From the NCBI GenBank assembly GCA_963718875.1, contig OY970378.1, forward strand, positions 477,373 to 541,372: 64,000 bases of DNA, read 5' to 3'. The translations under genes were made by a program, and so were the position numbers. The notes under the pieces were generated by a model, which saw nothing but the letters and a program-made list of their open reading frames with translations, was not told the DNA's origin and ran no database searches. This document shows positions 6,624 through 55,773 of this stretch, piece after piece. The stretch's first letter is position 1, and each line of letters opens with the position of its first letter. The DNA comes from Candidatus Parcubacteria bacterium. GTDB lineage: Bacteria > Patescibacteriota > Saccharimonadia > UBA4664 > JBIOIQ01.

Positions 6624-7859
6624 ATGGCAGCTAAACCGCAGGAACAAACCTACATAGGCCTTGATATAGGCAGCACAAAAGTGTGTTGTATTGTTGGTTT
6701 ACACGAAGAAGGCTCACCAACGCCTAGTGTTATTGGTGTGGGTATTGCACCTACTAACGGTATGCGGCGTGGCGTGGTTGTAGATATTGAAGAAACGGTC
6801 AGCTCTATAACAGCGGCGGTTGATGAAGCCGAGCGTATTTCGGGTATTGCGATTGATCGGGCTACTATAAGTATTGATGGTGCAAATGTTACCAGTATGA
6901 ACTCCAAAGGAGTAATAGCTGTAGGGAGGGCTGATCAAGAGATTACAGTAGAGGATTTACACCGGGCCGAAGAAGCGGCTACGGCGGTGCATTTGCCTCC
7001 TAATCGAGAAATTTTACAAGTATTTCCGCGGAGTTATACCGTAGACGGCCAAGTAAACATTAAGGACCCAGTTGGTATGAATGGGGTGCGACTTGAGGTT
7101 GAAACTCATATTATTACTGGAGCTACACCGGCGATAAAAAATCTTAACAGAAGTATTTACCAAGCGGGGATAGACATTGAAGGTCAGGTGTTAGTGCCAC
7201 TCGCCGCTGCACGGGCCGTGTTATCGAAACGCCAAAAAGAGCTTGGCGTGGCTTTGGTTGACATTGGAGGCGGTACCACGGGAGTAGCGGTTTATGAAGA
7301 GGGCGACGTGCTGTACAGTAGTGTTTTGCCGGTTGGTTCGTCTCATATTACTAATGATTTGGCTATAGGGCTAAGGACAAACGTTGATATTGCGGAAAAA
7401 ATTAAGCTTCGATATGCCAAGGCTGATCATCACAAATCAGGTGGTACTGAAAAAATTAGGATCGAAGAGCTTGAAGGGGATGAAGTGTTAGTTAGTCGGA
7501 GGGAGCTTAATAAAATTGTTGGTGCCCGGCTTGACGAGATATTTCAAATGGTGAGGGCGGAATTGCGCCAGGCTTCAAAGGATGTAATGTTACCGGCCGG
7601 AATCGTGCTCACGGGTGGAGGGGCCAAGCTAGAGGGGATAGAGGAATACGCACGAGAATCGCTTAAGCTGCCTGTGATTATAGGCAAGCCTGAAGGGCTG
7701 TCTGGAATGATTGATAAGATTAGTGATCCGGCTTTTGCTGCGCCTGTAGGTTTAATGCTCGAGAATATTGGCTATACTGGGTCTACCGACCGGACTAATG
7801 CCAAACTTGGCGCAACGGTCGATAAGATTAAACAGACTTTGCGCAATCTACTGCCATAA
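6624..7859 (+). CDS. ftsA: Cell division protein FtsA
   Basis: Actin-fold phosphate motifs GLDIGSTKV and DIGGGTTG; sits immediately upstream of ftsZ. Confidence 0.9.
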   Translation: MAAKPQEQTYIGLDIGSTKVCCIVGLHEEGSPTPSVIGVGIAPTNGMRRGVVVDIEETVSSITAAVDEAERISGIAIDRATISIDGANVTSMNSKGVIAVGRADQEITVEDLHRAEEAATAVHLPPNREILQVFPRSYTVDGQVNIKDPVGMNGVRLEVETHIITGATPAIKNLNRSIYQAGIDIEGQVLVPLAAARAVLSKRQKELGVALVDIGGGTTGVAVYEEGDVLYSSVLPVGSSHITNDLAIGLRTNVDIAEKIKLRYAKADHHKSGGTEKIRIEELEGDEVLVSRRELNKIVGARLDEIFQMVRAELRQASKDVMLPAGIVLTGGGAKLEGIEEYARESLKLPVIIGKPEGLSGMIDKISDPAFAAPVGLMLENIGYTGSTDRTNAKLGATVDKIKQTLRNLLP

Positions 7860-8099: not shown

Positions 8100-9416
8100 A
8101 TGGCGGAAATACTTCCAGAAGTCGAGACTTTTGCTCGAATCAAGGTGATCGGTGTTGGTGGCGGTGGTGGAGCCGCTGTCGAACGAATGATAAAGAGCAA
8201 GGTACAAGGCATAGAGTTCGTGGCCGTGAATACAGACGCGCAAGCTTTGCATTATTCACACGCACAAAGAAAGCTTAATATTGGGAAGCAAACAACCCGC
8301 GGGTTGGGAGCCGGAGCAGATCCAGAAGTTGGTCGAAAAGCAGCCGAAGAGAGCGAGAATGAAATTGCCGAGCTGCTCAAAGGTGCCGATATGGTTTTTA
8401 TTACAATTGGTGCTGGCGGTGGTACCGGTACCGGGGCGGCTCCTATAATTGCAGCAACAGCTCGTGAAACTGGGGCTTTAGTTGTTGGTATAGCTACTAA
8501 GCCATTTACCTTTGAAGGTGAGCGTCGTAGGCGTATTGCAGATGCTGGTATTATTGAGCTTAAAGACAATGTTGATACGCTAATAACAATTCCTAATGAT
8601 CGATTGTTGCAGATGATTGACCGAAAAACGTCGCTTTTGGACGCATTTAGTGTGGTTGATGAAGTTTTGCAACAAGGTGTACAAGGTATATCAGATCTTA
8701 TAACCATTAATGGGTTAATAAACTTAGACTTTGCTGATGTCAAAGCTATTATGCATAATGCGGGTTCGGCATTAATGGGAATCGGCCGTGCCTCTGGAGA
8801 CAATCGAGCGATTGAGGCTGCTCGTCAAGCTATCGATTCTCCTTTACTAGAAGTATCTATTGATGGCGCCAAAGGTGTCTTACTTAATATTACGGGTGGT
8901 CGTAATATGACCATGCATGAGATTGATGAGGCAGCTAAAACAATTACTGGCGCCGTTGATCCTGATGCCAATATTATTTTTGGAGCTGTTCTTGACGAGT
9001 CGTTGGATGATGATATAAAAATTACGGTAGTGGCAACCGGTTTTGAAAATAAGCCCCGTGAAAGGCTTGATCACCATCGAGTTCCTGAGCAAGAACCCGA
9101 ACCCGAGGTCTACACGAGTCCCGTGCTGGCGGAAAACCGTAAGCCCTTTATTGACGAACGCCCCCGCTTTAGTGAGCCGGATGAGGTTGTGGACGAGCCA
9201 GTCATTAGCCCAAGAACAGTTAGCCCACTTGGTAGCATTGAACCAGAGCCCGAAAATTACGATGAGCCGGATAGCTTTTTAAATGATACTCCTCGTCGAA
9301 TGCTGGAAGGGCCTATGATTGAAAAGGCTGAAGAACCCGCTGCTACGGCTAACCGTGATATACCTAGTGATGATGATTTAGATATACCTGCCTTTATTCG
9401 CCGCAAGGTTGAGTGA
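8100..9416 (+). CDS. ftsZ: Cell division protein FtsZ
   Basis: Tubulin signature [10 protein letters not shown]; long acidic/Pro-rich linker; C-terminal peptide [12 protein letters not shown]. Confidence 0.95.
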
Positions 9417-9423
9417 TAGACGC

Positions 9424-9530
9424 TTTCTAAGTGCGCTCTACAGGATCACTCCTGCGGCTATGCACTCCGCGTACCTAGTGTACGTCTCGCTTGCGTTGCT
9501 CGTCGTTCTTTGCAGTGCATCACTTAGAAA
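9424..9530. repeat. Imperfect palindromic intergenic repeat, family copy R1
   Basis: Outer arms TTTCTAAGTG / CACTTAGAAA; core GCACTCCGCGTAC..GTACGTCTCGCTTGCGTTGCTCG resembles the copies at 10201, 51167 and 55492. Confidence 0.7.
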
Positions 9531-9582
9531 TCCTCTATGAAGATTGCTTGCTCTTTTGTTCGCCAAGGGTGTTCATCTTTTT

Positions 9583-9854
9583 CCAATGTCGTCCCGACAC
9601 CTTGCCTTGATTAAGATAGGTACCACCAAACTGTCAGTACTTTTTATTTTTAGCTCTTTAGTCCAGCCTAAGACCGTTTGAGATGATTTATGTCTTTTTT
9701 GGTGTTATCTCAAGTTTATGGCATTCAAAGTCTAAGTTCTGTAGCGAGGGTAACTTATAATCCTTTTGGCTGCCTAAGGTAGTACTTTGACTACTGACAG
9801 TTTGGTGGTGCCTAGTTAAAACACCACCAGTGGATGTGTCTGGTTGATACTTTT
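9583..9854 (+). mobile_element. MITE-like ~270-bp element, copy 1
   Basis: Terminal inverted repeats GGTACCACCAAACTGTCAGTAC (9619-9640) and CTACTGACAGTTTGGTGGTGCC (9791-9812); whole segment recurs reverse-complemented at 26812-27083 with only about ten differences in the core, by hand alignment. Confidence 0.75.
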
Positions 9855-10002
9855 ATAAATGGTATTCGTGATGAATCCCGGCGTTAATTTAAAGAGAGCT
9901 CAAGGCCATTAAAAAGCCACCGTGAGCTCTTTGAAGATCCATTTCGCTACTTAAAAGTATGGCCGTTTTTCGTTTAAGTGGACAGAACCGAAGCCTTTGT
10001 GC

Positions 10003-10031
10003 TTGACAGGCTTAATGGGTTTCGCTAATAT
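10003..10031 (+). promoter_or_regulatory. Strong sigma70-type promoter
   Basis: TTGACA 10003-10008, 17-nt spacer, TAATAT 10026-10031. Confidence 0.6.
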
Positions 10032-10038
10032 AGCATTC

Positions 10039-10140
10039 ATGAAGTCTCAAAAAATGTGTGTACAACTAACCACGACTCGCCGACAAGCTTTGGCTCTTGG
10101 CGTTTTAATTGTGGCCGCACGCAGTGAGAGGCTTTTGTAA
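10039..10140 (+). CDS. Candidate leaderless 33-codon small hydrophobic peptide (or sRNA)
   Basis: ATG lies 7 nt after the -10; translation MKSQKMCVQLTTTRRQALALGVLIVAARSERLL; unit ends at the terminator 10167-10193. Confidence 0.3.
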   Translation: MKSQKMCVQLTTTRRQALALGVLIVAARSERLL

Positions 10141-10166
10141 CTTTTCCTAAAGAGTAGAATTTTTGC

Positions 10167-10193
10167 AAGAGCCTCCAACCGGAGGCTCTTTTT
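10167..10193 (+). terminator. Intrinsic terminator
   Basis: AAGAGCCTCC-AACC-GGAGGCTCTT followed by TTT. Confidence 0.8.
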
Positions 10194-10200
10194 AGTTTTA

Positions 10201-10320
10201 CAACTTACGTACTTGGCACATTTCTGCGGCAGCACTTGTGTTTCTCGCTCAACGTACTTTCGTGTACGTCTCGTTGCGATACTCGGTGCTTTCTTGAACT
10301 GTACTCAAGTGCATAAGTTG
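10201..10320. repeat. Imperfect palindromic intergenic repeat, family copy R2
   Basis: Arms CAACTTACGTACTTGG / CTCAAGTGCATAAGTTG; 5' arm nearly identical to R5 (AACTTACGYACKTGGCACATTTC). Confidence 0.7.
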
Positions 10321-10335
10321 TAAGAATAGCGTTAT

Positions 10336-10412
10336 GGGGACTAGGTGTCTGGGCTATGACACGTCTTGCATTATCGGTGCAAGGAAGGAGGTTCAAATCC
10401 TCAAGTCTCCAC
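10336..10412 (+). tRNA. tRNA-like gene: Ala-type acceptor stem, canonical D and T loops, aberrant anticodon arm
   Basis: Acceptor GGGGACT/AGTCTCC with G3:U70 and discriminator A; D stem GTGT/ACAC with a GG-containing loop; T loop GGTTCAAATCC; anticodon arm is a 7-bp helix with loop TTATCGG (central triplet ATC) and only a 2-nt variable region; CCA not encoded. Confidence 0.5.
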
Positions 10413-10890
10413 TGCAGTACCTACCAAAACCAAAAAAGGGGAAAGTAGTGAGAAATTCTGTTCGAAGCCTCCCTGGATGGACCACCTGTTCTCTTCACTT
10501 TGGGGCGAGTTCTATCGCAGAAGCTCGGGTGAAAGCTCTAGGGTTGGTGGGCATGGCCGATGACGCCTCAGTTAAGGCGGCATTAAGGGGCTGGACCATC
10601 AGGCAGGTGATAGTTCGGGATGAGCGTTTCATCGCTTTGGTCGCAGAGCTAGAAGTTCTTGGAGTACATCTCAAAGAAAAGGGCGTTCCGCGCTCGTGGA
10701 GGGTCTCGAAAGAAGAAGCTTCAACTCTCGCTGCTCAGTAGTACAGGGAGTCGTCCATCTGATGGGAGGAAGCCCAAACAGGGTGGACAAGGGTGCTGCA
10801 AAAAGTTTTAAAGTTGGCGATCCTAACTTTGAGACTTGGCCTCCGAAAGACGTGATAACAGCGTGTCTTTTGGGGGCCTTACCCATGTTA
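10413..10890 (+). other. G+C-enriched segment of uncertain coding status, downstream of the tRNA-like gene
   Basis: ORF 10334..10741 begins inside the tRNA-like element; only its C-terminal ~60 codons (MADDASVKAALRGW..EEASTLAAQ) look protein-like. Confidence 0.25.
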
Positions 10891-10901
10891 TAATTTACGT
10901 C

Positions 10902-11162
10902 ATGATAGCCTACATTTTGTACAATAAAGATACCCCAATGGAGCGCGATGTACGGTATTTTGCCAAGCGTCTCGAATCGTTACAGGTGCAAAGCAAACTA
11001 GTTGAAGCCGATTCAGTTGAAGGAATTAGTTTTACGGAAAATTATGACTTACTTGCTCGACCGTCGCTTGTTTTAGCTACAGACAATGGCGTACTTATTG
11101 AGCGTTGGCAGGGTGAGCTACCTTTGGTGGAAAATGTAAGTTATTTGGCTCACCAATCGTGA
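10902..11162 (+). CDS. Hypothetical 86-aa protein (leaderless start)
   Basis: Extended -10 TGTTATAAT at 10886-10894, ATG 7 nt downstream; lies between ftsZ and yggT, where sepF/ylm genes sit in Firmicutes, but no SepF motif was recognised. Confidence 0.55.
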   Translation: MIAYILYNKDTPMERDVRYFAKRLESLQVQSKLVEADSVEGISFTENYDLLARPSLVLATDNGVLIERWQGELPLVENVSYLAHQS

Positions 11163-11227
11163 CGCAAAAATGCTCTTGTCGCTCAATGGGCTGTCCCGGC
11201 AAGTACTTTCAAGAAAGTTGGTCGTAG

Positions 11228-11500
11228 GTGAGCCAGTTTGTAAGCATTCTGTTAGTGTTTTTTAACTTATTTGTTATTGCCTTTAATGCTATTTTGATTA
11301 TACGGATTGTTGTAAGCTGGATTATGCCCGACATGCAGGCAAATTGGTTTGGTCGCTTATTGATTGATACAACTGAACCAATATTGGCACCGGTGAGGAA
11401 AATTTTACCGGGGGGTGGAATGATTGATTTGGCGCCGATGGTGACAATAATTGGTCTTTACGCCTTGCGAACATTGATATTTAGTTTGCTATTTCGCTAG
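11228..11500 (+). CDS. yggT: YggT/YlmG family membrane protein
   Basis: 90 aa, two TM helices, typical YggT layout; conserved position between ftsZ and ileS. Confidence 0.75.
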   Translation: MSQFVSILLVFFNLFVIAFNAILIIRIVVSWIMPDMQANWFGRLLIDTTEPILAPVRKILPGGGMIDLAPMVTIIGLYALRTLIFSLLFR

Positions 11501-11559
11501 CAATGCGTCATTATGTGGGTACAAAGTAAAAGCGTGTCGACTAAATGACAAGTGGTTAT

Positions 11560-11711
11560 CAGCCACTAGCTAGCGAGAAGAACAGCAAGCTAATTGCCTA
11601 CTAGACCTTGCCGGTGTGCCCCGTAAGAGCACAAATGAAGTGTCCATCTGGATAAGCAGGGTGGTACCTCCCGTTAGAAGTAATGGGACCCTGCAAACGG
11701 ATGGTTTTTTT
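11560..11711 (+). promoter_or_regulatory. T-box leader upstream of ileS
   Basis: T-box sequence AGGGTGGTACC at 11658-11668, then a hairpin ending in T7 (11704-11710); RBS AGGAG at 11717-11721; 5' boundary approximate. Confidence 0.7.
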
Positions 11712-11728: not shown

Positions 11729-14700
11729 ATGAAAAAAGTCGAACAAGCTAACTTTCCCGAATTTGAGCAAGAGATGCTTAAAATATGGGATAAGGAAAAG
11801 ACTTTTGAACAAAGCCTAGAGCTACGAAAAGGATCCAAGCGGTTTAGTTTTTACGATGGGCCTCCTTTTGCTAATGGCCTGCCACATTATGGACACGTTG
11901 TAGCAATCACCGAAAAGGATTCGATGACACGTTACAAAACTATGCGTGGGTATTTTGTGCCTCGCCGGAATGGTTGGGACACTCATGGGCTACCGGTAGA
12001 GTATGAAGTCGAAAAACAGTTAGGTATTTCAGGGAAAAAACAGATACAGGAAATGGGAGTAGATAAGTTTAATGAAGCCGCCAGGGCCAGTGTCTTTAAA
12101 TACAAAGAGCATTGGGAAGATTTTATGACTCGTATTGGCCGATGGGCCGATAAAAACTCGTATGCTACTTTGGACGATAGCTATATTGAAAGTGTTTGGT
12201 GGGTTTTAGGTCAGCTTCATGAAAAGGGTTTGATATATCGAGGATTCCGCTCTAACCCGTATTGCCCACGATGCGCCACTCCTCTTTCTAATTTTGAGGT
12301 GAACCAGAATTATAAGGACAATGTGTTGGACCCAAGCGTTTTTGTGAAGTTCGCTTTGGTTGAAGATCCGAACACAAGCCTGCTGGCTTGGACGACGACT
12401 CCATGGACGCTTCCGGCCAATGCGGCTTTGGCTGTTGATTCGGCGGCTGAATACGTGACGGTAGAATTGTTGGCGGATGGTGATGGTTGGGAAAAGGGGG
12501 AGAAGCTGATACTCGCGAAGAAGCGGATTGGTGAACTGGATCTGAGGAAGGCTGAGTATAAGGTAGTTAAAACACAGCAGGGCAAAGAGTTAGTCAATAA
12601 AATGTACTCTTCATTGTATGACTTGGCGATGAAAAGGCCTCCCGTTGAGTGGTCAGGTGCATCCGAAGGTCAACCTGGCCGCCCCAGAGCCAACCAAGTT
12701 TATGAGGATGACTCGGTTAGTCTTGAGGATGGGACCGGTATTTTACATATTGCTCCAAGATATGGAGAAGCCGATCTAGATTTGGGCATTAGGGAAGACT
12801 TGCCACTAATAGAAAGCGTTGATGGTAATGGACTTATGGCGGAGTCTTTTAAAGAAATTTCCGGGCTTGAAGACATTGTCGGGATGTTTTTTAAGAAGGC
12901 TGACCCGTTAATTATCGAGGATCTAGCTAAAAAAGGTCGCATCTTTGCCGCCGAATCTTTTGAGCATACTTACCCGTTTTGTTGGCGCTGCGAAACGCCG
13001 TTGATGTATTTTGCTATGCCGAGCTGGTTTGTAAAGGTAACAGAATTAAGAGACAAGCTGGTGGCTAACAACGAAAAAATCAATTGGGTGCCTAAGCATA
13101 TTAAGACTGGTCGTTTTGGTAATTGGCTGGCCGAGGCGCGCGACTGGAATTTTAGCCGCAATCGGTTTTGGGGTGCGCCTATCCCAATTTGGGTTAATGT
13201 GGACGACGAAACTGACTTGATCATAATCAAGTCAGTCCAAGAGCTGGAAGAGCTTTCTGGAGTTAAAGGAATTGATTTGCATCGTCCGAGTATAGATGTG
13301 GTTATACTCGAGCGCGACGGCAAAACATATAAACGAGTGGAAGAGGTGTTTGACTGCTGGTTTGAAAGCGGGTCAATGCCTTATGCCCAAGATCATTATC
13401 CGTTTGATGATAAAGAGAATTTTGATGATAAATTTCCGGCGGAGTTTATAGCCGAAGGCTTGGATCAGACGCGGGGCTGGTTTTACACCCTCCATGTTCT
13501 TGGCACGGCTTTGTTTGACAAGCCGGCGTTTAAGAATGTTATTGTTCACGGAATGGTTCTGGCGGCAGACGGGAAAAAGCTTAGTAAAAGATTAAGAAAT
13601 TACCCTGAACCATCAGAAATTTTTAATGGGACTGGAGCTGATAGTCTAAGGTTTTTCCTTATGAGTAGCCCAGTTGAAAATGGCGAAGATGTTCGTTTTA
13701 GCTACGATGCAGTCAATGAAGTTAAGCGCAACGTCTTTATGACGCTATGGAACGTCTTATCCTTCTTTACGACCTATGCCGAAATTGATAAATGGAAACC
13801 GAATACAAAAATTGTACAGCCTAAATCAAATAATGTCTTAGACGAATGGATGCTTGTAAGGCTAAACCAAACAACAGCCATCATGACGAAAGCGGCGGAT
13901 AGCTACCAGATTTCAAAAGCCGTAGAACCTTTAAAGGACTTGATTGACGATTTATCCAATTGGTACGTAAGACGTAGTAGGCGAAGGTTTGCCAAGAACG
14001 AAAGTAAGGCTGATAAGCTTCAAGCATTTGAAACGTTGCACTACGTATTGTTGCGAACTTCACAACTACTTGCACCTTGGTCGCCGTTTGTAAGCGATAA
14101 GGTGTGGCGAATTATTACCGAGGGAATGGATATTCCCCGCTCTGTGCATTTGAGTGACTGGCCGGAAGTTGGAGAAATTAGTAATGGAATATTACTCAAT
14201 GACATGAAAGAAATGCGTGATTTAGTTACCGAAGGTTTGGCTCAGAGGGCGGCAGCAGGAATTAAGGTGCGCCAGCCTTTAGCAGATGCACGATACGCAG
14301 GCAAAAAGCTGGATGATAGGTTAGTTGAAATTGCGGCCGAAGAGCTCAACGTCAAGCGACTTATAAATGACCCCACAGAAGAGGAAATTTCAAGTCGATT
14401 TGAAAAGATTGTTCCCGGTTCGACTGGTTTCAAACATGAGCCAGGGTTGCCGTCCAAACTGGTTTCCGTAAGTCGATTGGATAATCTTGTTGATCAAGAT
14501 TCTGGTGTCGAACAACTTGAAGAAAGTTTGAGTATAAAAAAAATAATATTGAATACTGAAATGACTCAAGAGTTAAAGCTGGAAGGCTTGGCGCGGGATC
14601 TTATACGCCAAGTGCAAGTTGCGCGCAAAGAGGCCGATCTTCAAGCCAATGACGTCATAAATCTGCTACTTGGAGTTGAAGGCGAGGCTGCAGAGGCGGC

Positions 14701-14830
14701 AAAGGCTTATGCTGAGATGATAGGCCGCGAGACTCTTGCCCAAGACTTTAAGGTCAGTAACATTGATCCGAGTGTTGTTCCGATACGGTTGGCGGGACAC
14801 GATATTACAATTGATTTAAGTAAGGCCTGA
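11729..14830 (+). CDS. ileS: Isoleucyl-tRNA synthetase
   Basis: HIGH-type motif PHYGHV, KMSKS-type KLSKRL, CP1 editing region; 1033 aa. Confidence 0.95.
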   Translation: MKKVEQANFPEFEQEMLKIWDKEKTFEQSLELRKGSKRFSFYDGPPFANGLPHYGHVVAITEKDSMTRYKTMRGYFVPRRNGWDTHGLPVEYEVEKQLGISGKKQIQEMGVDKFNEAARASVFKYKEHWEDFMTRIGRWADKNSYATLDDSYIESVWWVLGQLHEKGLIYRGFRSNPYCPRCATPLSNFEVNQNYKDNVLDPSVFVKFALVEDPNTSLLAWTTTPWTLPANAALAVDSAAEYVTVELLADGDGWEKGEKLILAKKRIGELDLRKAEYKVVKTQQGKELVNKMYSSLYDLAMKRPPVEWSGASEGQPGRPRANQVYEDDSVSLEDGTGILHIAPRYGEADLDLGIREDLPLIESVDGNGLMAESFKEISGLEDIVGMFFKKADPLIIEDLAKKGRIFAAESFEHTYPFCWRCETPLMYFAMPSWFVKVTELRDKLVANNEKINWVPKHIKTGRFGNWLAEARDWNFSRNRFWGAPIPIWVNVDDETDLIIIKSVQELEELSGVKGIDLHRPSIDVVILERDGKTYKRVEEVFDCWFESGSMPYAQDHYPFDDKENFDDKFPAEFIAEGLDQTRGWFYTLHVLGTALFDKPAFKNVIVHGMVLAADGKKLSKRLRNYPEPSEIFNGTGADSLRFFLMSSPVENGEDVRFSYDAVNEVKRNVFMTLWNVLSFFTTYAEIDKWKPNTKIVQPKSNNVLDEWMLVRLNQTTAIMTKAADSYQISKAVEPLKDLIDDLSNWYVRRSRRRFAKNESKADKLQAFETLHYVLLRTSQLLAPWSPFVSDKVWRIITEGMDIPRSVHLSDWPEVGEISNGILLNDMKEMRDLVTEGLAQRAAAGIKVRQPLADARYAGKKLDDRLVEIAAEELNVKRLINDPTEEEISSRFEKIVPGSTGFKHEPGLPSKLVSVSRLDNLVDQDSGVEQLEESLSIKKIILNTEMTQELKLEGLARDLIRQVQVARKEADLQANDVINLLLGVEGEAAEAAKAYAEMIGRETLAQDFKVSNIDPSVVPIRLAGHDITIDLSKA

Positions 14831-14873: not shown

Positions 14874-15983
14874 ATGCTTCGTAAACGGTTTTGGAAAAAC
14901 TTTGATTTTATTTTGCTAGTAGTAGCTTTGTTGCTGGCGCTTGTAGGCATATTGGTTTTGTACTCTATTGGTTTTAAGGTAGCGAACTTGGCTTCTCCTG
15001 TGGCTGTGCGTAACCAGATAGTTTTTGCCGTGATTGGTGTTGTGGGGCTGCTTGTTTTCGCGGTGGTTGATTATAGAAGTTGGACTAAGTTCACACCGTT
15101 CCTTTACGTTGCAATGGTAGTACTCCTAGGAGTTGTACTTATAGCAGGAAAGTCTGCACTGGGAGCAACCAGGTGGATCAACTTAGGGTTTTTCCAGTTT
15201 CAGCCTTCAGAATTAGCAAAATTGGTGTTGATTGTGATATTAGCGCGCTTTTTTGCAACACACTATGATCAAATGGACAAGCCTCGCTATATTATCCAAT
15301 CGGCTATTTATATGCTTATTCCAGCAGTCCTAGTTCTTACGCAACCCGATCTTGGTACAGCCATGGTTTTGGGCGTTATTTGGCTGGTAATGATTCTAAC
15401 CACAAAAGCGCCAAAAATGTTGTTTGTGGTGTTAGGAGTTGTGGGCTCAATGTTACTACCTACTGCATATCATTTTTTAGGCGACTATCAAAAAGCCCGC
15501 ATCGCGGTGTTTCTAAATCCTTCGGTTGATCCTCAAGGGCGTGGGTTCAATGTTATCCAATCGACTATTGCAGTAGGGAGTGGGCAGCTTTTTGGCCGGG
15601 GTCTAGCTGCTGGTAGCCAGAGCCAACTCAACTTTTTGCCCAGCCAGCATACTGACTTTATATTTGCGGTCTTGACCGAGAAGATGGGGTTTATCGGTGG
15701 TTCCTTGTTGCTGTTAATGTTTGGCTTGTTACTCGCCAGAGGACTATTAATAGCTTATCGTGCCCAAGATCGTTTTGGGCTATTTCTAGCGGTTGGTATA
15801 GTAACGATGTTTGCGTTTCATGTTTTTATTAATGTAGGGATGAACATGGGGATTATGCCGGTTACAGGGATACCATTGCCGTTTGTCAGCTACGGTGGCA
15901 CCAGCTTACTGATAGGAATGATTGGAGTGGGACTATTGGAGTCTGTTAATGTTCGGCGCAAAAAACTGGAGTTTGGAAACTAA
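14874..15983 (+). CDS. SEDS-family peptidoglycan polymerase (FtsW/RodA)
   Basis: About ten TM helices, FQPSELAK and DFIFAV motifs; cannot distinguish FtsW from RodA. Confidence 0.85.
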   Translation: MLRKRFWKNFDFILLVVALLLALVGILVLYSIGFKVANLASPVAVRNQIVFAVIGVVGLLVFAVVDYRSWTKFTPFLYVAMVVLLGVVLIAGKSALGATRWINLGFFQFQPSELAKLVLIVILARFFATHYDQMDKPRYIIQSAIYMLIPAVLVLTQPDLGTAMVLGVIWLVMILTTKAPKMLFVVLGVVGSMLLPTAYHFLGDYQKARIAVFLNPSVDPQGRGFNVIQSTIAVGSGQLFGRGLAAGSQSQLNFLPSQHTDFIFAVLTEKMGFIGGSLLLLMFGLLLARGLLIAYRAQDRFGLFLAVGIVTMFAFHVFINVGMNMGIMPVTGIPLPFVSYGGTSLLIGMIGVGLLESVNVRRKKLEFGN

Positions 15984-26631: not shown

Positions 26632-26811
26632 GGATAGGAGTATATCAGGAAATCGCTCGGCAGGCAACATTAGTGGGTCTGGGTGCTGTCCACTTAAATG
26701 GAACGACCAAGCTTTTAAGTGGCGTAAATGGATCTTCAAAGCGCTCTCGGCGGCTTCTTCTTGGCCCTAAGCTCTCTTATAATTCCGGGAATCATCACTA
26801 ATGTCATCTCT

Positions 26812-27083
26812 AAAAGTATCAACCAGACACATCCACTGGTGGTGTTTTAACTAGGTACCACCAAACTGTCAGTAGTCAAAGTACTGCCTTAGGCAGCCAA
26901 AAGGATTATAAGTTACTCTCGCTTTAAAGCTTAGACTTTAAATGCCATAAACTTGAGATAACACCAAAAAAGACATAAATCATCTCAAGCGGTCTTAGGC
27001 TGGCCTAAAGAGCTAAAAATAAAAAGTACTGACAGTTTGGTGGTACCTGCCTTAATCAAGGTAAGATGGCAGGGCGACATAGG
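26812..27083 (-). mobile_element. MITE-like ~270-bp element, copy 2 (inverted relative to copy 1)
   Basis: TIRs GGTACCACCAAACTGTCAGTAG (26854-26875) and GTACTGACAGTTTGGTGGTACC (27026-27047); reverse complement aligns with 9583-9854. Confidence 0.75.
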
Positions 27084-51113: not shown

Positions 51114-51166
51114 ATTAAAGACGGCGACCTTTGACAGTCGAATAATCTAAGATCATTAGAGAAACG

Positions 51167-51282
51167 GCTTGCAACTTTGGCTTATTTCGTCGTTGCAGCT
51201 TGCGCTCCGCACTCACCGTACCATTAAGTACGGTTCGCTTGCGGTGCTCGCTGCGCCTAGAACTAAGTCCAGATTTGCAAGC
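51167..51282. repeat. Imperfect palindromic intergenic repeat, family copy R4
   Basis: Arms GCTTGCAA / TTGCAAGC; core TGCGCTCCGCACTC..CGCTTGCGGTGCTCG shared with R5. Confidence 0.7.
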
Positions 51283-51336
51283 CTTGCAAGAAGTACAAAT
51301 ACAAATCTAATACAAAATACTTGCTTCGCATTAACC

Positions 51337-52647: not shown

Positions 52648-53826
52648 ATGAGCACCAGAAGAGGTCCTGTTCTGATCATCGTGTGTCTGCTGATGGCAGC
52701 GGGGGCTTTGCTGTTCAAGTACGGCAACGGCCCAACGCCGGCAGTGGCACAGACGCCGCCCACGGTGCCCGTTTCGGACGTCTGCAAGGACGTCCCGGGC
52801 AACGTGCCGAGGTGGTTTGCCAAGGAGACCGACGGCAACAAGTTCGGTCCGGCGGCTCCGTTTGACCTTGGTCCCGCCAGGAAGGCTCAGCACGAGGTCC
52901 TGTGCCTCGACCCGGCCAACCTGGTGATCACCCAGGAGACCATCGACGGGAAGTTCAGCAGTCCGGCAAACCGGGCTGCCCGGACTCGCGTTCTCGTTGC
53001 CAACCCCACTGCGCGGTTGGCAGCGGTGGCCTATGTGCAGGCAGAGTTGGCCAAGGCCAAGGAGGTTCGGCTGGAGGTCCACACGGGACCCTACCAGACC
53101 TTCTACATGACCACCGACGGCGACGTGCCGGAGGTGTTCCAGTCTGCAGGGAGCTTCACCGAGGCACGGCACGTTCTCGTGTACGACTTCGGTAACGGTC
53201 GCACGGTCAACTTCGTACTGGAGTGCAACTTCCAGGGGGAGTTCCCCGGGCCGGTCAAGAACGTGCCGGTGGCAACGCCGGGCACTGTGCCGGCGCTGGT
53301 TCAGCCGGGGCCCACCAGCCCGCCGCCGACGACGTGCCAGTCGACCAACACCTGTTCGACCGTGACCAGCCCACCGCCCGTGTGCTGCGGACCGCCCCCG
53401 ACGACGTGTCAGGTCAACTGCGGTCCGCCCCCGACGACGTGTCAGGTCAACTGCGGTCCGCCGCCGACGACGTGTCAGGTCAACTGCGGTCCGCCGCCGA
53501 CGACGTGTCAGGTCAACTGCGGTCCGCCGCCGACCGTTTGCACACACAAGTGCGCGGGAGAGGACGTTGCGGTCAGTCCGAGTCTGGATCCTGTCGTTTC
53601 GGGACTGGCTGCGGGCAATGCCGCACCCACTGCGGTGGCAACACCGGTCGTGACGGCGCCTCCGGCGCCGCCTCCGCCCGTGACCACAGCCACGCCACCC
53701 GTGACGGCTCTGCCGTCCTCCGATGGCGTGGCAGCTCCACCGCCTGTAGTGGCTCCACCGTACGTGGCGCCCGATGCGGGCACTCCGTCCAACCCGACGA
53801 CGGGAACCATTCCGCCGCCGCCGTAG
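52648..53826 (+). CDS. High-G+C island gene B: secreted or anchored protein with CGPPPTTCQVN tandem repeats and a Pro/Ala/Val-rich tail
   Basis: AAGGAGGG RBS 5 nt before ATG 52648; N-terminal signal/anchor MSTRRGPVLIIVCLLMAAGALLF; ~220-aa globular region; 11-aa Cys/Pro repeats; ORF track start 52150 overlaps gene A and the terminator. Confidence 0.7.
   Translation: MSTRRGPVLIIVCLLMAAGALLFKYGNGPTPAVAQTPPTVPVSDVCKDVPGNVPRWFAKETDGNKFGPAAPFDLGPARKAQHEVLCLDPANLVITQETIDGKFSSPANRAARTRVLVANPTARLAAVAYVQAELAKAKEVRLEVHTGPYQTFYMTTDGDVPEVFQSAGSFTEARHVLVYDFGNGRTVNFVLECNFQGEFPGPVKNVPVATPGTVPALVQPGPTSPPPTTCQSTNTCSTVTSPPPVCCGPPPTTCQVNCGPPPTTCQVNCGPPPTTCQVNCGPPPTTCQVNCGPPPTVCTHKCAGEDVAVSPSLDPVVSGLAAGNAAPTAVATPVVTAPPAPPPPVTTATPPVTALPSSDGVAAPPPVVAPPYVAPDAGTPSNPTTGTIPPPP
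53386..53535 (+). repeat. 33-bp tandem repeat, about 4.5 copies, in frame within gene B
   Basis: TGCGGTCCGCC(C/G)CCGACGACGTGTCAGGTCAAC repeated head to tail with one or two substitutions. Confidence 0.95.
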
Positions 53827-55479: not shown

Positions 55480-55491
55480 GTGTCTGAGGCA

Positions 55492-55623
55492 GAACTTACG
55501 CACGTGGCACATTTCGGCGCAAAGACTGCGCTCCGCACTCGTCCCCGGATCAAGTCCGGGGCAGGCTAGCGCTTGTTGCGGTGCTCGTCTTTGCATCCGA
55601 ACTGCACTCACGTGCGTAAGTTC
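55492..55623. repeat. Imperfect palindromic intergenic repeat, family copy R5
   Basis: Perfect 15-bp outer arms GAACTTACGCACGTG / CACGTGCGTAAGTTC; core TGCGCTCCGCACTC..GCGGTGCTCG; apical hairpin CCCCGGAT-CAA-GTCCGGGG. Confidence 0.8.
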
Positions 55624-55773
55624 TGGGGCAGGATCTGGACGCTCATCCGGCTAAGAGTTACTGAAACGGAGCATCCTCACCAGGGCGGGGACTTCCTGTT
55701 TAGCATGACAATTGGAGGTTAGATGCTCTTAAAACGAAGGTGATTTAGTCGTTGCTAGGGTATAATTAGGCTT

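Follow-up and report, generated by a model that had tools for sequence, protein, structure and literature searches.

Transcripts punctuated by tRNA-shaped cis-elements are documented in organelles and in eukaryotic nuclei. In mascRNA, of the MALAT1 type, a tRNA-like RNA with a reduced anticodon arm is cut from a longer transcript by tRNA-processing enzymes. To our knowledge, conserved tRNA-shaped cis-elements have rarely been described in free-living or epibiotic bacteria, and a full-text literature search for "tRNA-like" together with "Saccharibacteria" returned no paper. The t-elements that carry the motif GGTTCRANYCC direct cleavage by RNase P and RNase Z, producing mRNA ends (PMC1920247). 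Transfer-messenger RNA (tmRNA) carries G3:U70 and A73, is alanylated without an anticodon and has a 5′ end made by RNase P (PMC3985003). Here we analyze a tRNA-like element at positions 10336–10412 (+ strand; GGGGACUAGGUGUCUGGGCUAUGACACGUCUUGCAUUAUCGGUGCAAGGAAGGAGGUUCAAAUCCUCAAGUCUCCAC) of a 64,000-nt stretch, hereafter the window, of contig OY970378.1 (positions 477,373 to 541,372; assembly GCA_963718875.1, Candidatus Parcubacteria bacterium). The host clade is Saccharimonadia (Saccharibacteria/TM7, Patescibacteria). The element lies downstream of ftsZ, behind a candidate leader-peptide attenuator and ahead of a fast-evolving orphan open reading frame (ORF) of about 97 aa, and we regard it, with a probability of about 0.8, as a conserved tRNA mimic that does not decode. 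If so, the novelty lies in a tRNA mimic of the t-element type that is bacterial, confined to one lineage and placed behind an attenuator. In a lineage with reduced genomes, this would offer a testable case for bacterial tRNA mimics that shape mRNAs and, with the same element, a test case for an anticodon-free Ala acceptor other than tmRNA.

ARAGORN identified a single tRNA or tmRNA gene in the window, with exactly these coordinates, and labelled it tRNA-Asp(atc). At relaxed thresholds the Rfam tRNA family (RF00005) covers 10336–10411 end to end with 22.9 bits (E = 0.13 for 2.8 kb searched against 4227 families), below the gathering score of 29 bits; when the whole window was compared with Rfam, zero families passed the gathering threshold. 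The minimum free energy (MFE) structure of the strand is the cloverleaf (−30.4 kcal/mol, z = −4.4 against dinucleotide shuffles), and none of the 200 shuffles folded as stably. The overall length is about 76 nt (the call spans 77 bases), and no CCA is encoded at the 3′ end. The 7-bp acceptor stem contains G1-C72, G2-C71, G3·U70 and G4-C69 and is followed by discriminator A73, a combination that includes the substrate set of alanyl-tRNA synthetase (AlaRS; G3:U70, A73, G2-C71 and G4-C69). The D arm has a 5-bp stem and an 8-nt loop with GG, and the T arm combines the loop UUCAAAU with a stem of four standard pairs and one G·A. The T-loop motif GGTTCAAATCC occurs once in the window (0.2 expected), and the single occurrence of the T-arm motif GGTTCRANTCC in the window also falls within the element. 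The canonical acceptor stem, the T-loop motif and the D-loop GG needed for an L-shape elbow are all in place. A sequence-only reading of this stretch had proposed a tRNA-shaped gene with the AlaRS acceptor set, A73, a D-loop GG and a canonical T-loop; these features can be read directly from the letters, and the ARAGORN coordinates, the Rfam alignment and the stability of the fold bear out the shape.

The anticodon-like helix comprises 7 bp (UCUUGCA/UGCAAGG) around the loop UUAUCGG, as the sequence-only reading had drawn it. Two extra U·G pairs are predicted inside this loop (probabilities 0.97 and 0.52), which refines the helix to 7–9 bp, so the loop probably collapses to 3–5 unpaired nt. The variable region is 2–3 nt long and position 8 is A, not U. 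The element shares with a bacterial tRNA-Ala the acceptor identity set, the discriminator, the D-loop GG, the T-loop and the 76-nt length, but has no Ala anticodon and differs in its 7–9-bp helix, its 2–3-nt variable region, A8, the G·A T-stem pair and the sub-threshold Rfam score. When it was compared with 25 Patescibacteria tRNAs, the acceptor stem was Ala-like; Asp-like character was seen in the D arm, at G26 and where the anticodon stem begins, and all identities were about 0.7. A hidden tRNA-Ala anticodon in CUUGCAU, on the 5′ strand of the helix, was considered and rejected, as by our reading of the sequence no alternative 5-bp stem is able to close it. On the reading that we favour, the element derives from some tRNA gene.

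Relatives were gathered through FtsZ homologues of 88–73% identity in a large protein collection, and their contigs were fetched; the named FtsZ relatives are Candidatus Saccharimonadales or Saccharimonadia. Directly 3′ of ftsZ, five genomes carry a module in the order promoter, leader ORF, antiterminator, terminator, structured RNA, Shine-Dalgarno sequence and ORF of about 100 aa. These are the window genome and those represented by L191, L196, L188/L189 and L190, with 88%, 85%, 81% and 80% FtsZ identity to the window, respectively. The module always lies between ftsZ and yggT-ileS and belongs to a single Saccharimonadia clade; its structured-RNA and ORF parts are variable or incomplete in L191 and L196. 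It is missing in L193 (76% FtsZ identity) and L194 (74%), where other genes come after ftsZ. No tRNA was found after ftsZ in GTDB representative loci, with ARAGORN run on 60 of 80 loci and a minihelix scan on 80 of 80; the GTDB ftsZ loci among the matches listed come from distant Patescibacteria only, and close relatives are not among them. The sequence-only reading had offered to give way if a covariance model assigned a normal isotype with a standard anticodon or if the locus was unexpressed and absent from relatives. The covariance model assigned no normal isotype, and the locus is present in relatives; neither outcome refutes the observation.

The tRNA-like element of L190 (9409–9477) is a 69-nt cloverleaf with acceptor stem GGGGCCG/CGGCUCC, including G3·U70 and followed by A73, a D stem of 4–5 bp, GG in the D loop and the T arm UGGG-UUCGAAU-CCCA. 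Its anticodon arm is GCCCGC-UUCG-GCGGG, a 5-bp stem with a UUCG tetraloop and without an anticodon. The element of L188 (8584–8695) scores 43.1 bits against the Rfam tRNA family and passes the gathering score, which the elements of the window and L190 do not reach. It carries a 50-nt insertion in the anticodon arm (an arm of about 55 nt), and its acceptor AGGCUUG/CAGGCCU contains A1-U72, G3-C70, C4-G69 and U5·G68 with discriminator G73; the AlaRS substrate set, present in the window and L190, is missing. Of the L191 element, only 18 nt (...ATGGGGACTAGGTAACTA) are present before the contig ends; its 5′ end keeps GGGG, and over the first 11 nt it matches the window exactly. In L196 the same slot (1852–1985) holds a different RNA, multi-branched and 125 nt long (MFE −53.7 kcal/mol, z = −5.8), in which neither a T-loop motif nor an Rfam match was found.

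The three complete elements (window, L190 and L188) were aligned by structure; the alignment was made by hand and verified against the sequences. In the acceptor, D and T stems, both partners have been replaced in 10 of the 17 pairs with pairing retained, and 3 of the 51 cells are non-standard, indicating that the shape of the acceptor, D and T arms is under selection. The T-loops are canonical in all three elements. The anticodon arms are alike in neither length nor loop, and none has a canonical 5-bp stem and 7-nt loop with a conserved anticodon. Because the arm differs in every orthologue (a 7–9-bp helix, a UUCG hairpin and a 50-nt expansion), AUC is not an anticodon under selection. What has been retained (acceptor stem, T arm and D/T elbow) is what tRNA-processing enzymes recognise. 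The window and L190 agree in A73 and in all four Ala-determinant pairs but differ at pairs 5 and 7. The flanks are also shared: a terminator lies upstream of all elements, in the window and L190 a hairpin repeat (H, described below) separates the terminator from the element, CCAC and AAGGGGA follow downstream in the same two, and the arms of the window and L188 elements both contain UGCAU(U/A)AUC. On the strength of these flanks we assume for the three sequences that the elements descend from a common ancestor rather than from independent capture. Among the functions that the sequence-only reading had listed, a tRNA mimic or processing signal emerges as the best supported, with L190, L188 and, for its part, the incomplete L191 keeping the arms through compensatory changes and leaving the anticodon arm free.

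The sole promoter-like site in 9300–11300 is a sigma-70-like promoter (TTGACA, 17 nt, TAATAT; 10003–10031, + strand). A scan for TTGAC[AT] found TTGACA at the matching place in L188, L191 and L196; the L190 segment began inside the motif. A leader ORF of 33 aa (MKSQKMCVQLTTTRRQALALGVLIVAARSERLL; 10039–10140, + strand) begins 7 nt past the −10 box, so the leader mRNA is probably leaderless. Homologous leaders of 21–33 aa, with the pattern MKSQ...GL(F/L)(I/V)V..., occupy the matching place in L191 (MKSQTCAQFNFKTLTMGLLVIVAH), L196 (MKSQSTYMINWMVIGLLFVEQE), L188 (VKSQYTYNMKYDRCPGMALGLFIVIARF) and L190 (...MKNVRPAHLGLFIVPRSRLSY). The end of the leader ORF is overlapped by an antiterminator strand, GAGGCTTTTG (10128–10137, + strand), and GAGGCTTT is invariant in five of the five genomes, where it appears as GAGGCTTT(C/T)G at or beside the leader stop codon. 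Next comes an intrinsic terminator with a 10-bp G+C-rich stem, a 4-nt loop and a T-run (10167–10198, + strand). This is the sole + strand terminator in 9300–11300, and it is kept in L188, L190, L191 and L196. When the 3′ arm of the terminator was omitted, GAGGCUUU paired with the 5′ arm at −18.9 kcal/mol in the window, −14.9 kcal/mol in L188 and −18.0 kcal/mol in L191, which makes an antiterminator plausible.

A short ORF, a terminator and an exclusive antiterminator over the ORF end, the parts of a leader-peptide attenuator, are all present and are kept in the five genomes, and the leader ORF, GAGGCTTT and the terminator together make a candidate leader-peptide attenuator. Weak matches to the Rfam family Phe_leader reflect the leader-plus-terminator layout. 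As in the trp and pheA attenuators, a short ORF is combined with a terminator and with a conserved strand over the leader stop codon that pairs with the terminator 5′ arm. Unlike them, the leader is without a run of regulatory codons, the cargo is a tRNA-like element with an orphan ORF rather than a biosynthetic operon, and regulation is a prediction here. The gap from the T-run to the tRNA-like element is only 16–26 nt in L188 and L191 (26 nt in L191), which leaves no space for a second promoter before the element in these genomes, and the leader and the tRNA-like element are likely co-transcribed. Since the only promoter-like site and the only + strand terminator in 9300–11300 belong to the leader, and L188 and L191 have no space for another promoter, we propose that the element and the ORF are expressed by read-through of the attenuator.

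Downstream of the element, the Shine-Dalgarno sequence AAGGGGA (10436–10442, + strand) is positioned 5 nt before GTG 10448, the start of the ORF of about 97 aa (10448–10741, + strand, G+C content 0.54). The corresponding sequences are AAAGGGGAGGAAG in L190 and GGAGGT in L188, and the distance from the 3′ end of the tRNA-like element to the start codon is 35 nt in both the window and L190. Public gene calls start at ATG 10334 and give a protein of 135 aa (10334–10741), present for the window genome only. The first 26 codons of this call are the tRNA-like element, which it swallows because gene callers extend to ATG 10334; the start is probably over-extended. Positional counterparts of the ORF are P0123 in L188 (99 aa) and P0122 in L190 (112 aa); in each of the three genomes the G+C content of the ORF is higher than that of its neighbours. 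The two counterparts are homologous to each other (BLASTP E = 1e-6), and the similarity of the window ORF to either is insignificant. Beyond the three positional counterparts, no homologue was found among 5.8 billion word-indexed proteins (single and profile searches) or with HMMER among 1.84 billion representatives. The ORF has no match in Pfam or PHROG, and its profile has no relatives in viral contigs. The AlphaFold model of the window ORF is poor, with a predicted local distance difference test (pLDDT) score of 54.7.

By analogy with t-elements and mascRNA, we propose that tRNA-processing enzymes cut transcripts reading through the attenuator at the mimic and in this way set the limits of the downstream mRNA; we rate this mechanism at slightly under an even chance. 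A ribosome that completes the leader ORF would mask the antiterminator strand, so that the terminator forms and the unit is off. If translation of the leader failed or stalled early, GAGGCUUU would pair with the terminator 5′ arm and allow read-through. The cloverleaf in the read-through RNA would then be cut on its 5′ side by RNase P and on its 3′ side by a tRNA 3′-processing nuclease. These cuts would part the leader from an ORF mRNA with a 35-nt 5′ untranslated region that contains the Shine-Dalgarno sequence, and would also free a tRNA-like RNA of about 76 nt. Because the full AlaRS identity set is present in the window and L190, the freed RNA in these two could be open to CCA addition and alanylation.

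The features that mark a t-element, a non-canonical cloverleaf with a conserved T-arm motif beside an mRNA, are all found here; plant-mitochondrial t-elements likewise have a well-kept T arm and do not decode (PMC1920247). The present element differs in that the host is a Saccharimonadia bacterium and not an organelle, that it stands behind a leader-peptide attenuator, and that cleavage is predicted; moreover, two lineages carry a full AlaRS set, which t-elements are not known to need. The likeness to mascRNA lies in the tRNA-like fold, and the L190 copy gives a weak match to RF01684 (20.1 bits, far under the gathering score of 42.5 bits). That family, however, is eukaryotic and nuclear and has no sequence relationship to the element, which is located upstream of an ORF and not at the 3′ end of a long non-coding RNA. 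The tRNA-like domain of tmRNA also has G3:U70, A73 and a T-arm motif, GGUUCAAAUCC, but is built from both ends of an RNA of about 350 nt with a tag ORF and pseudoknots, whereas the window cloverleaf is one contiguous stretch that includes a D stem and an anticodon-like helix. ARAGORN found no tmRNA in the window, and the Rfam tmRNA model gave no match in 8800–11600 even at E ≤ 10.

Several observations weigh against a non-decoding mimic that acts in processing. The identity of the Ala determinants in the window and L190 is not explained by a pure processing role. In L196, with FtsZ at 85% identity, the same leader and attenuator are found beside another RNA, the 125-nt multi-hairpin without a T-loop, so a tRNA shape is not indispensable. 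The argument from compensatory changes assumes a single ancestral element and draws on three complete orthologues and one fragment. Homology of the window ORF to the ORFs of L188 and L190 is undemonstrable, and its structure model is poor. In the window and L190, a promoter missed by the scan could reside in the repeat of about 130 nt that separates terminator and element, and expression of the element is a prediction from sequence.

The Ala determinants fit another proposal, in which the element is a stand-alone, anticodon-independent Ala acceptor that is excised, receives CCA, is charged by AlaRS and stays off the codon–anticodon path. Such an RNA could be likened to the tmRNA domain or to the non-proteinogenic tRNAs of cell-wall and lipid aminoacylation, and it might work with the co-encoded small protein. 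G1-C72, G2-C71, G3·U70, G4-C69 and A73 are kept in the window and L190 though two of the three lower acceptor pairs differ, L191 keeps its GGGG 5′ end, and the elbow is retained (D-loop GG and T-loop UUCRAAU). AlaRS reads the acceptor stem without the anticodon, and tmRNA is likewise alanylated (PMC3985003). A role in translation stress would also fit, because the attenuator should open when translation of the leader stalls. We nevertheless consider an Ala acceptor unlikely. L188 is without Ala identity (G3-C70, C4-G69, A1-U72 and G73), L196 is without any tRNA-like element, the T stem has just four standard pairs, no partner enzyme was found at the locus and the ORF is without a detectable family. 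The lack of the Ala set in L188 and of the tRNA shape in L196 argues against an Ala-acceptor function being essential, although alanylation is possible in the two lineages that keep the full AlaRS set. The more elaborate version, an anticodon-less Ala acceptor that is induced through the attenuator by leader stalling and is partnered with the orphan protein of about 100 aa, we regard as a long shot. If true, it would imply ribosome rescue or alanine tailing, or an Ala donor outside translation, in an ultra-small Saccharibacteria genome. A functionless relic, that is, a decaying duplicated or captured tRNA gene and maybe an old integration scar with the adjacent G+C-richer DNA, is doubtful as well. 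It would account for the sub-threshold Rfam score and the non-canonical core (A8, and G·A in the T stem), and it agrees with a region that is a fast-evolving repeat trap, with the other filling of the slot in L196, with the absence of the module at 74–76% FtsZ identity, and with a neighbouring orphan ORF that is G+C-richer than its neighbours in three genomes. But neutral decay should break stems, and in this small sample 10 of the 17 stem pairs are double-changed with hardly any broken and the T-loops are intact; the order terminator, element, Shine-Dalgarno sequence and ORF is also kept across several species. An att-like duplicate of the tRNA-like 3′ end was not found in the 64 kb, nor was phage similarity in 9990–10900, which rules out a fresh integration scar. 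For the degenerate tRNA-Ala marking an integration site that the sequence-only reading had suggested, the G+C-richer ORF offers slight support at best, set against the missing att repeat, the missing phage match and the maintained shape.

A functional AUC tRNA, charged with Ala (or Asp) and reading GAU, is very improbable. The tRNA-Asp(atc) call of ARAGORN speaks for it, as do the U33 and purine 37 that the loop would have if read as 7 nt and the existence, in viral and metagenome contigs, of canonical AUC tRNAs with G3:U70 and A73 (51–68 bits in Rfam). The orthologues, however, are without such a loop, the helix has 7–9 bp and not 5, the loop is predicted to be closed, and the 22.9 bits of the window element compare with 51–68 bits for the canonical AUC tRNAs, to which it is unrelated. 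GAU is the main Asp codon in the host (94 GAU versus 45 GAC among the 139 Asp codons of ftsA, ftsZ, ileS and ftsW), so Ala inserted at GAU would cause proteome-wide damage. Under established identity rules the discriminator of tRNA-Asp is G73, and the element has A73. The missing AUC loop in orthologues, the predicted closure of the window loop and the use of GAU as major Asp codon leave the earlier suggestion of a tRNA that is alanylated but decodes otherwise without support. A T-box-type element, also on the earlier list, gave no match at E ≤ 10 in 8800–11600; a T-box riboswitch was rejected on this ground and because ileS is 1.3 kb off, behind two other genes and its own promoter. We give next to no credence to the view that a genuine 135-aa gene (10334–10741) happens to begin with a sequence that folds as a cloverleaf by chance. 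Gene callers in public data do predict that gene, but neither L188 nor L190 has anything matching its first 38 codons, and in both the ORF starts past the tRNA-like element with a Shine-Dalgarno sequence of its own; the z score of the fold is −4.4, no second copy of the T-loop motif occurs in the window, and relatives have a tRNA-like element in the same slot. For annotation, the ARAGORN label "tRNA-Asp(AUC)" should not count as a decoder, and the element is swallowed by a 135-aa hypothetical protein.

The module is preceded by ftsA (6624–7859) and ftsZ (8100–9416) and followed by a 74-aa gene (10938–11162), yggT (11228–11500), ileS (11729–14830) and an ftsW-like gene (14874–15983). The spacer from ftsZ to the 74-aa gene and yggT measures 1.5 kb in the window, and the equivalent spacer of relatives 0.9–1.7 kb. 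It contains the small ORF with its attenuator, two copies of the H hairpin repeat, a repeat resembling a miniature inverted-repeat transposable element (MITE), the tRNA-like element and the ORF of about 97 aa. Of the "1.5-kb non-coding insertion" seen by the sequence-only reading, the length stands; the spacer is neither simply non-coding nor an insertion confined to this genome, given the conserved small ORF with its attenuator and the ORF of about 97 aa inside it and the similar spacers of relatives. A long hairpin at 10838–10878 (+ strand), read from the sequence, is predicted to close the unit. After it, TATAAT at 10889–10894 is the predicted −10 box of the next operon (the 74-aa gene, yggT and ileS); L188 has an analogous hairpin followed by CCCATG(C/T)TATAAT, and L190 has a hairpin.

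The first H copy in the spacer lies at 9416–9538 (H1), and the second, an inverted repeat of about 130 nt without an assigned strand, lies between the terminator and the tRNA-like element at 10193–10328 (H2). The position of H2 is matched in L190, and no copy stands there in L188 or L191. The H family (about 125–135 nt) has further copies in the window at about 51165–51285 and 55490–55625, and one in L190 at 8328–8415. Its core has the form ..TGCGCTCCGCACTC-hairpin-CTCGCTTGCGGTGCTCG.., and the outer stem shows compensatory changes among the four window copies. The usual site is immediately 3′ of a gene end or terminator, and the contigs of two close relatives end just past ftsZ, consistent with a repeat at that spot. 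We rejected H2 and the tRNA-like element as a single repeated unit, since the four H copies have no common downstream sequence. The MITE-like repeat (about 260 bp, at about 9600–9860) has a second, inverted copy at 26810–27060 and terminal inverted repeats of about 30 bp (GGTACCACCAAACTGTCAGTA).

Across 103 metagenome loci, a pattern search turned up no homologue of the window element. It retrieved a family of tRNA-like RNAs of 71–74 nt, here Family X, of the form GGGGCGAG...CUUAUCA(A/U)...GGGGUUCAAYUCCCCCUCGCUCCA, on metagenome contigs, several from groundwater (L094, L111, L115, L121, L123, L140, L158, L161, L183, L184, L087 and L118). The search pattern was copied from the window element and required GGGG, YTATCR, the T-loop and CTCCA in every member. 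The acceptor has 8 bp, G3:U70 and A73 being invariant, and the other parts are a 5-bp D stem closing a loop of 4–5 nt, a 4-bp T stem and an anticodon-like stem of 5–7 bp with an 8-nt loop. Compensatory changes affect 14 of the 23 pairs. These RNAs are called neither by ARAGORN nor by Rfam at the gathering threshold; they may be tRNAs whose anticodon loop is expanded, or they may form a new class of tRNA-like RNA. The window element scores 29.8 bits against a model of the family (R1), a score that is circular because the family was retrieved with a pattern derived from the window element; we reject it as evidence of membership. The window acceptor has 7 bp and its D loop 8 nt, compared with Family X, and the orthologues of the window element are without the loop motif.

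Canonical-looking AUC tRNAs with the AlaRS set and a 5-bp/7-nt anticodon arm were also observed, in L082/L084/L098/L187 (IMG/VR and metagenome), L101/L141, L172, L182, L089, L122/L136 and L165. Where scored, they reach 51–68 bits in Rfam, and some are on viral contigs; they are pattern-selected, yet recurrent across samples. Such tRNAs would be expected to accept Ala and to read the Asp codon GAU. Elsewhere in the window, a G+C-rich 33-nt tandem repeat at 53385–53534 (4.5 copies, 98% identity) lies inside long overlapping ORFs on both strands and is probably an 11-aa repeat in a protein.

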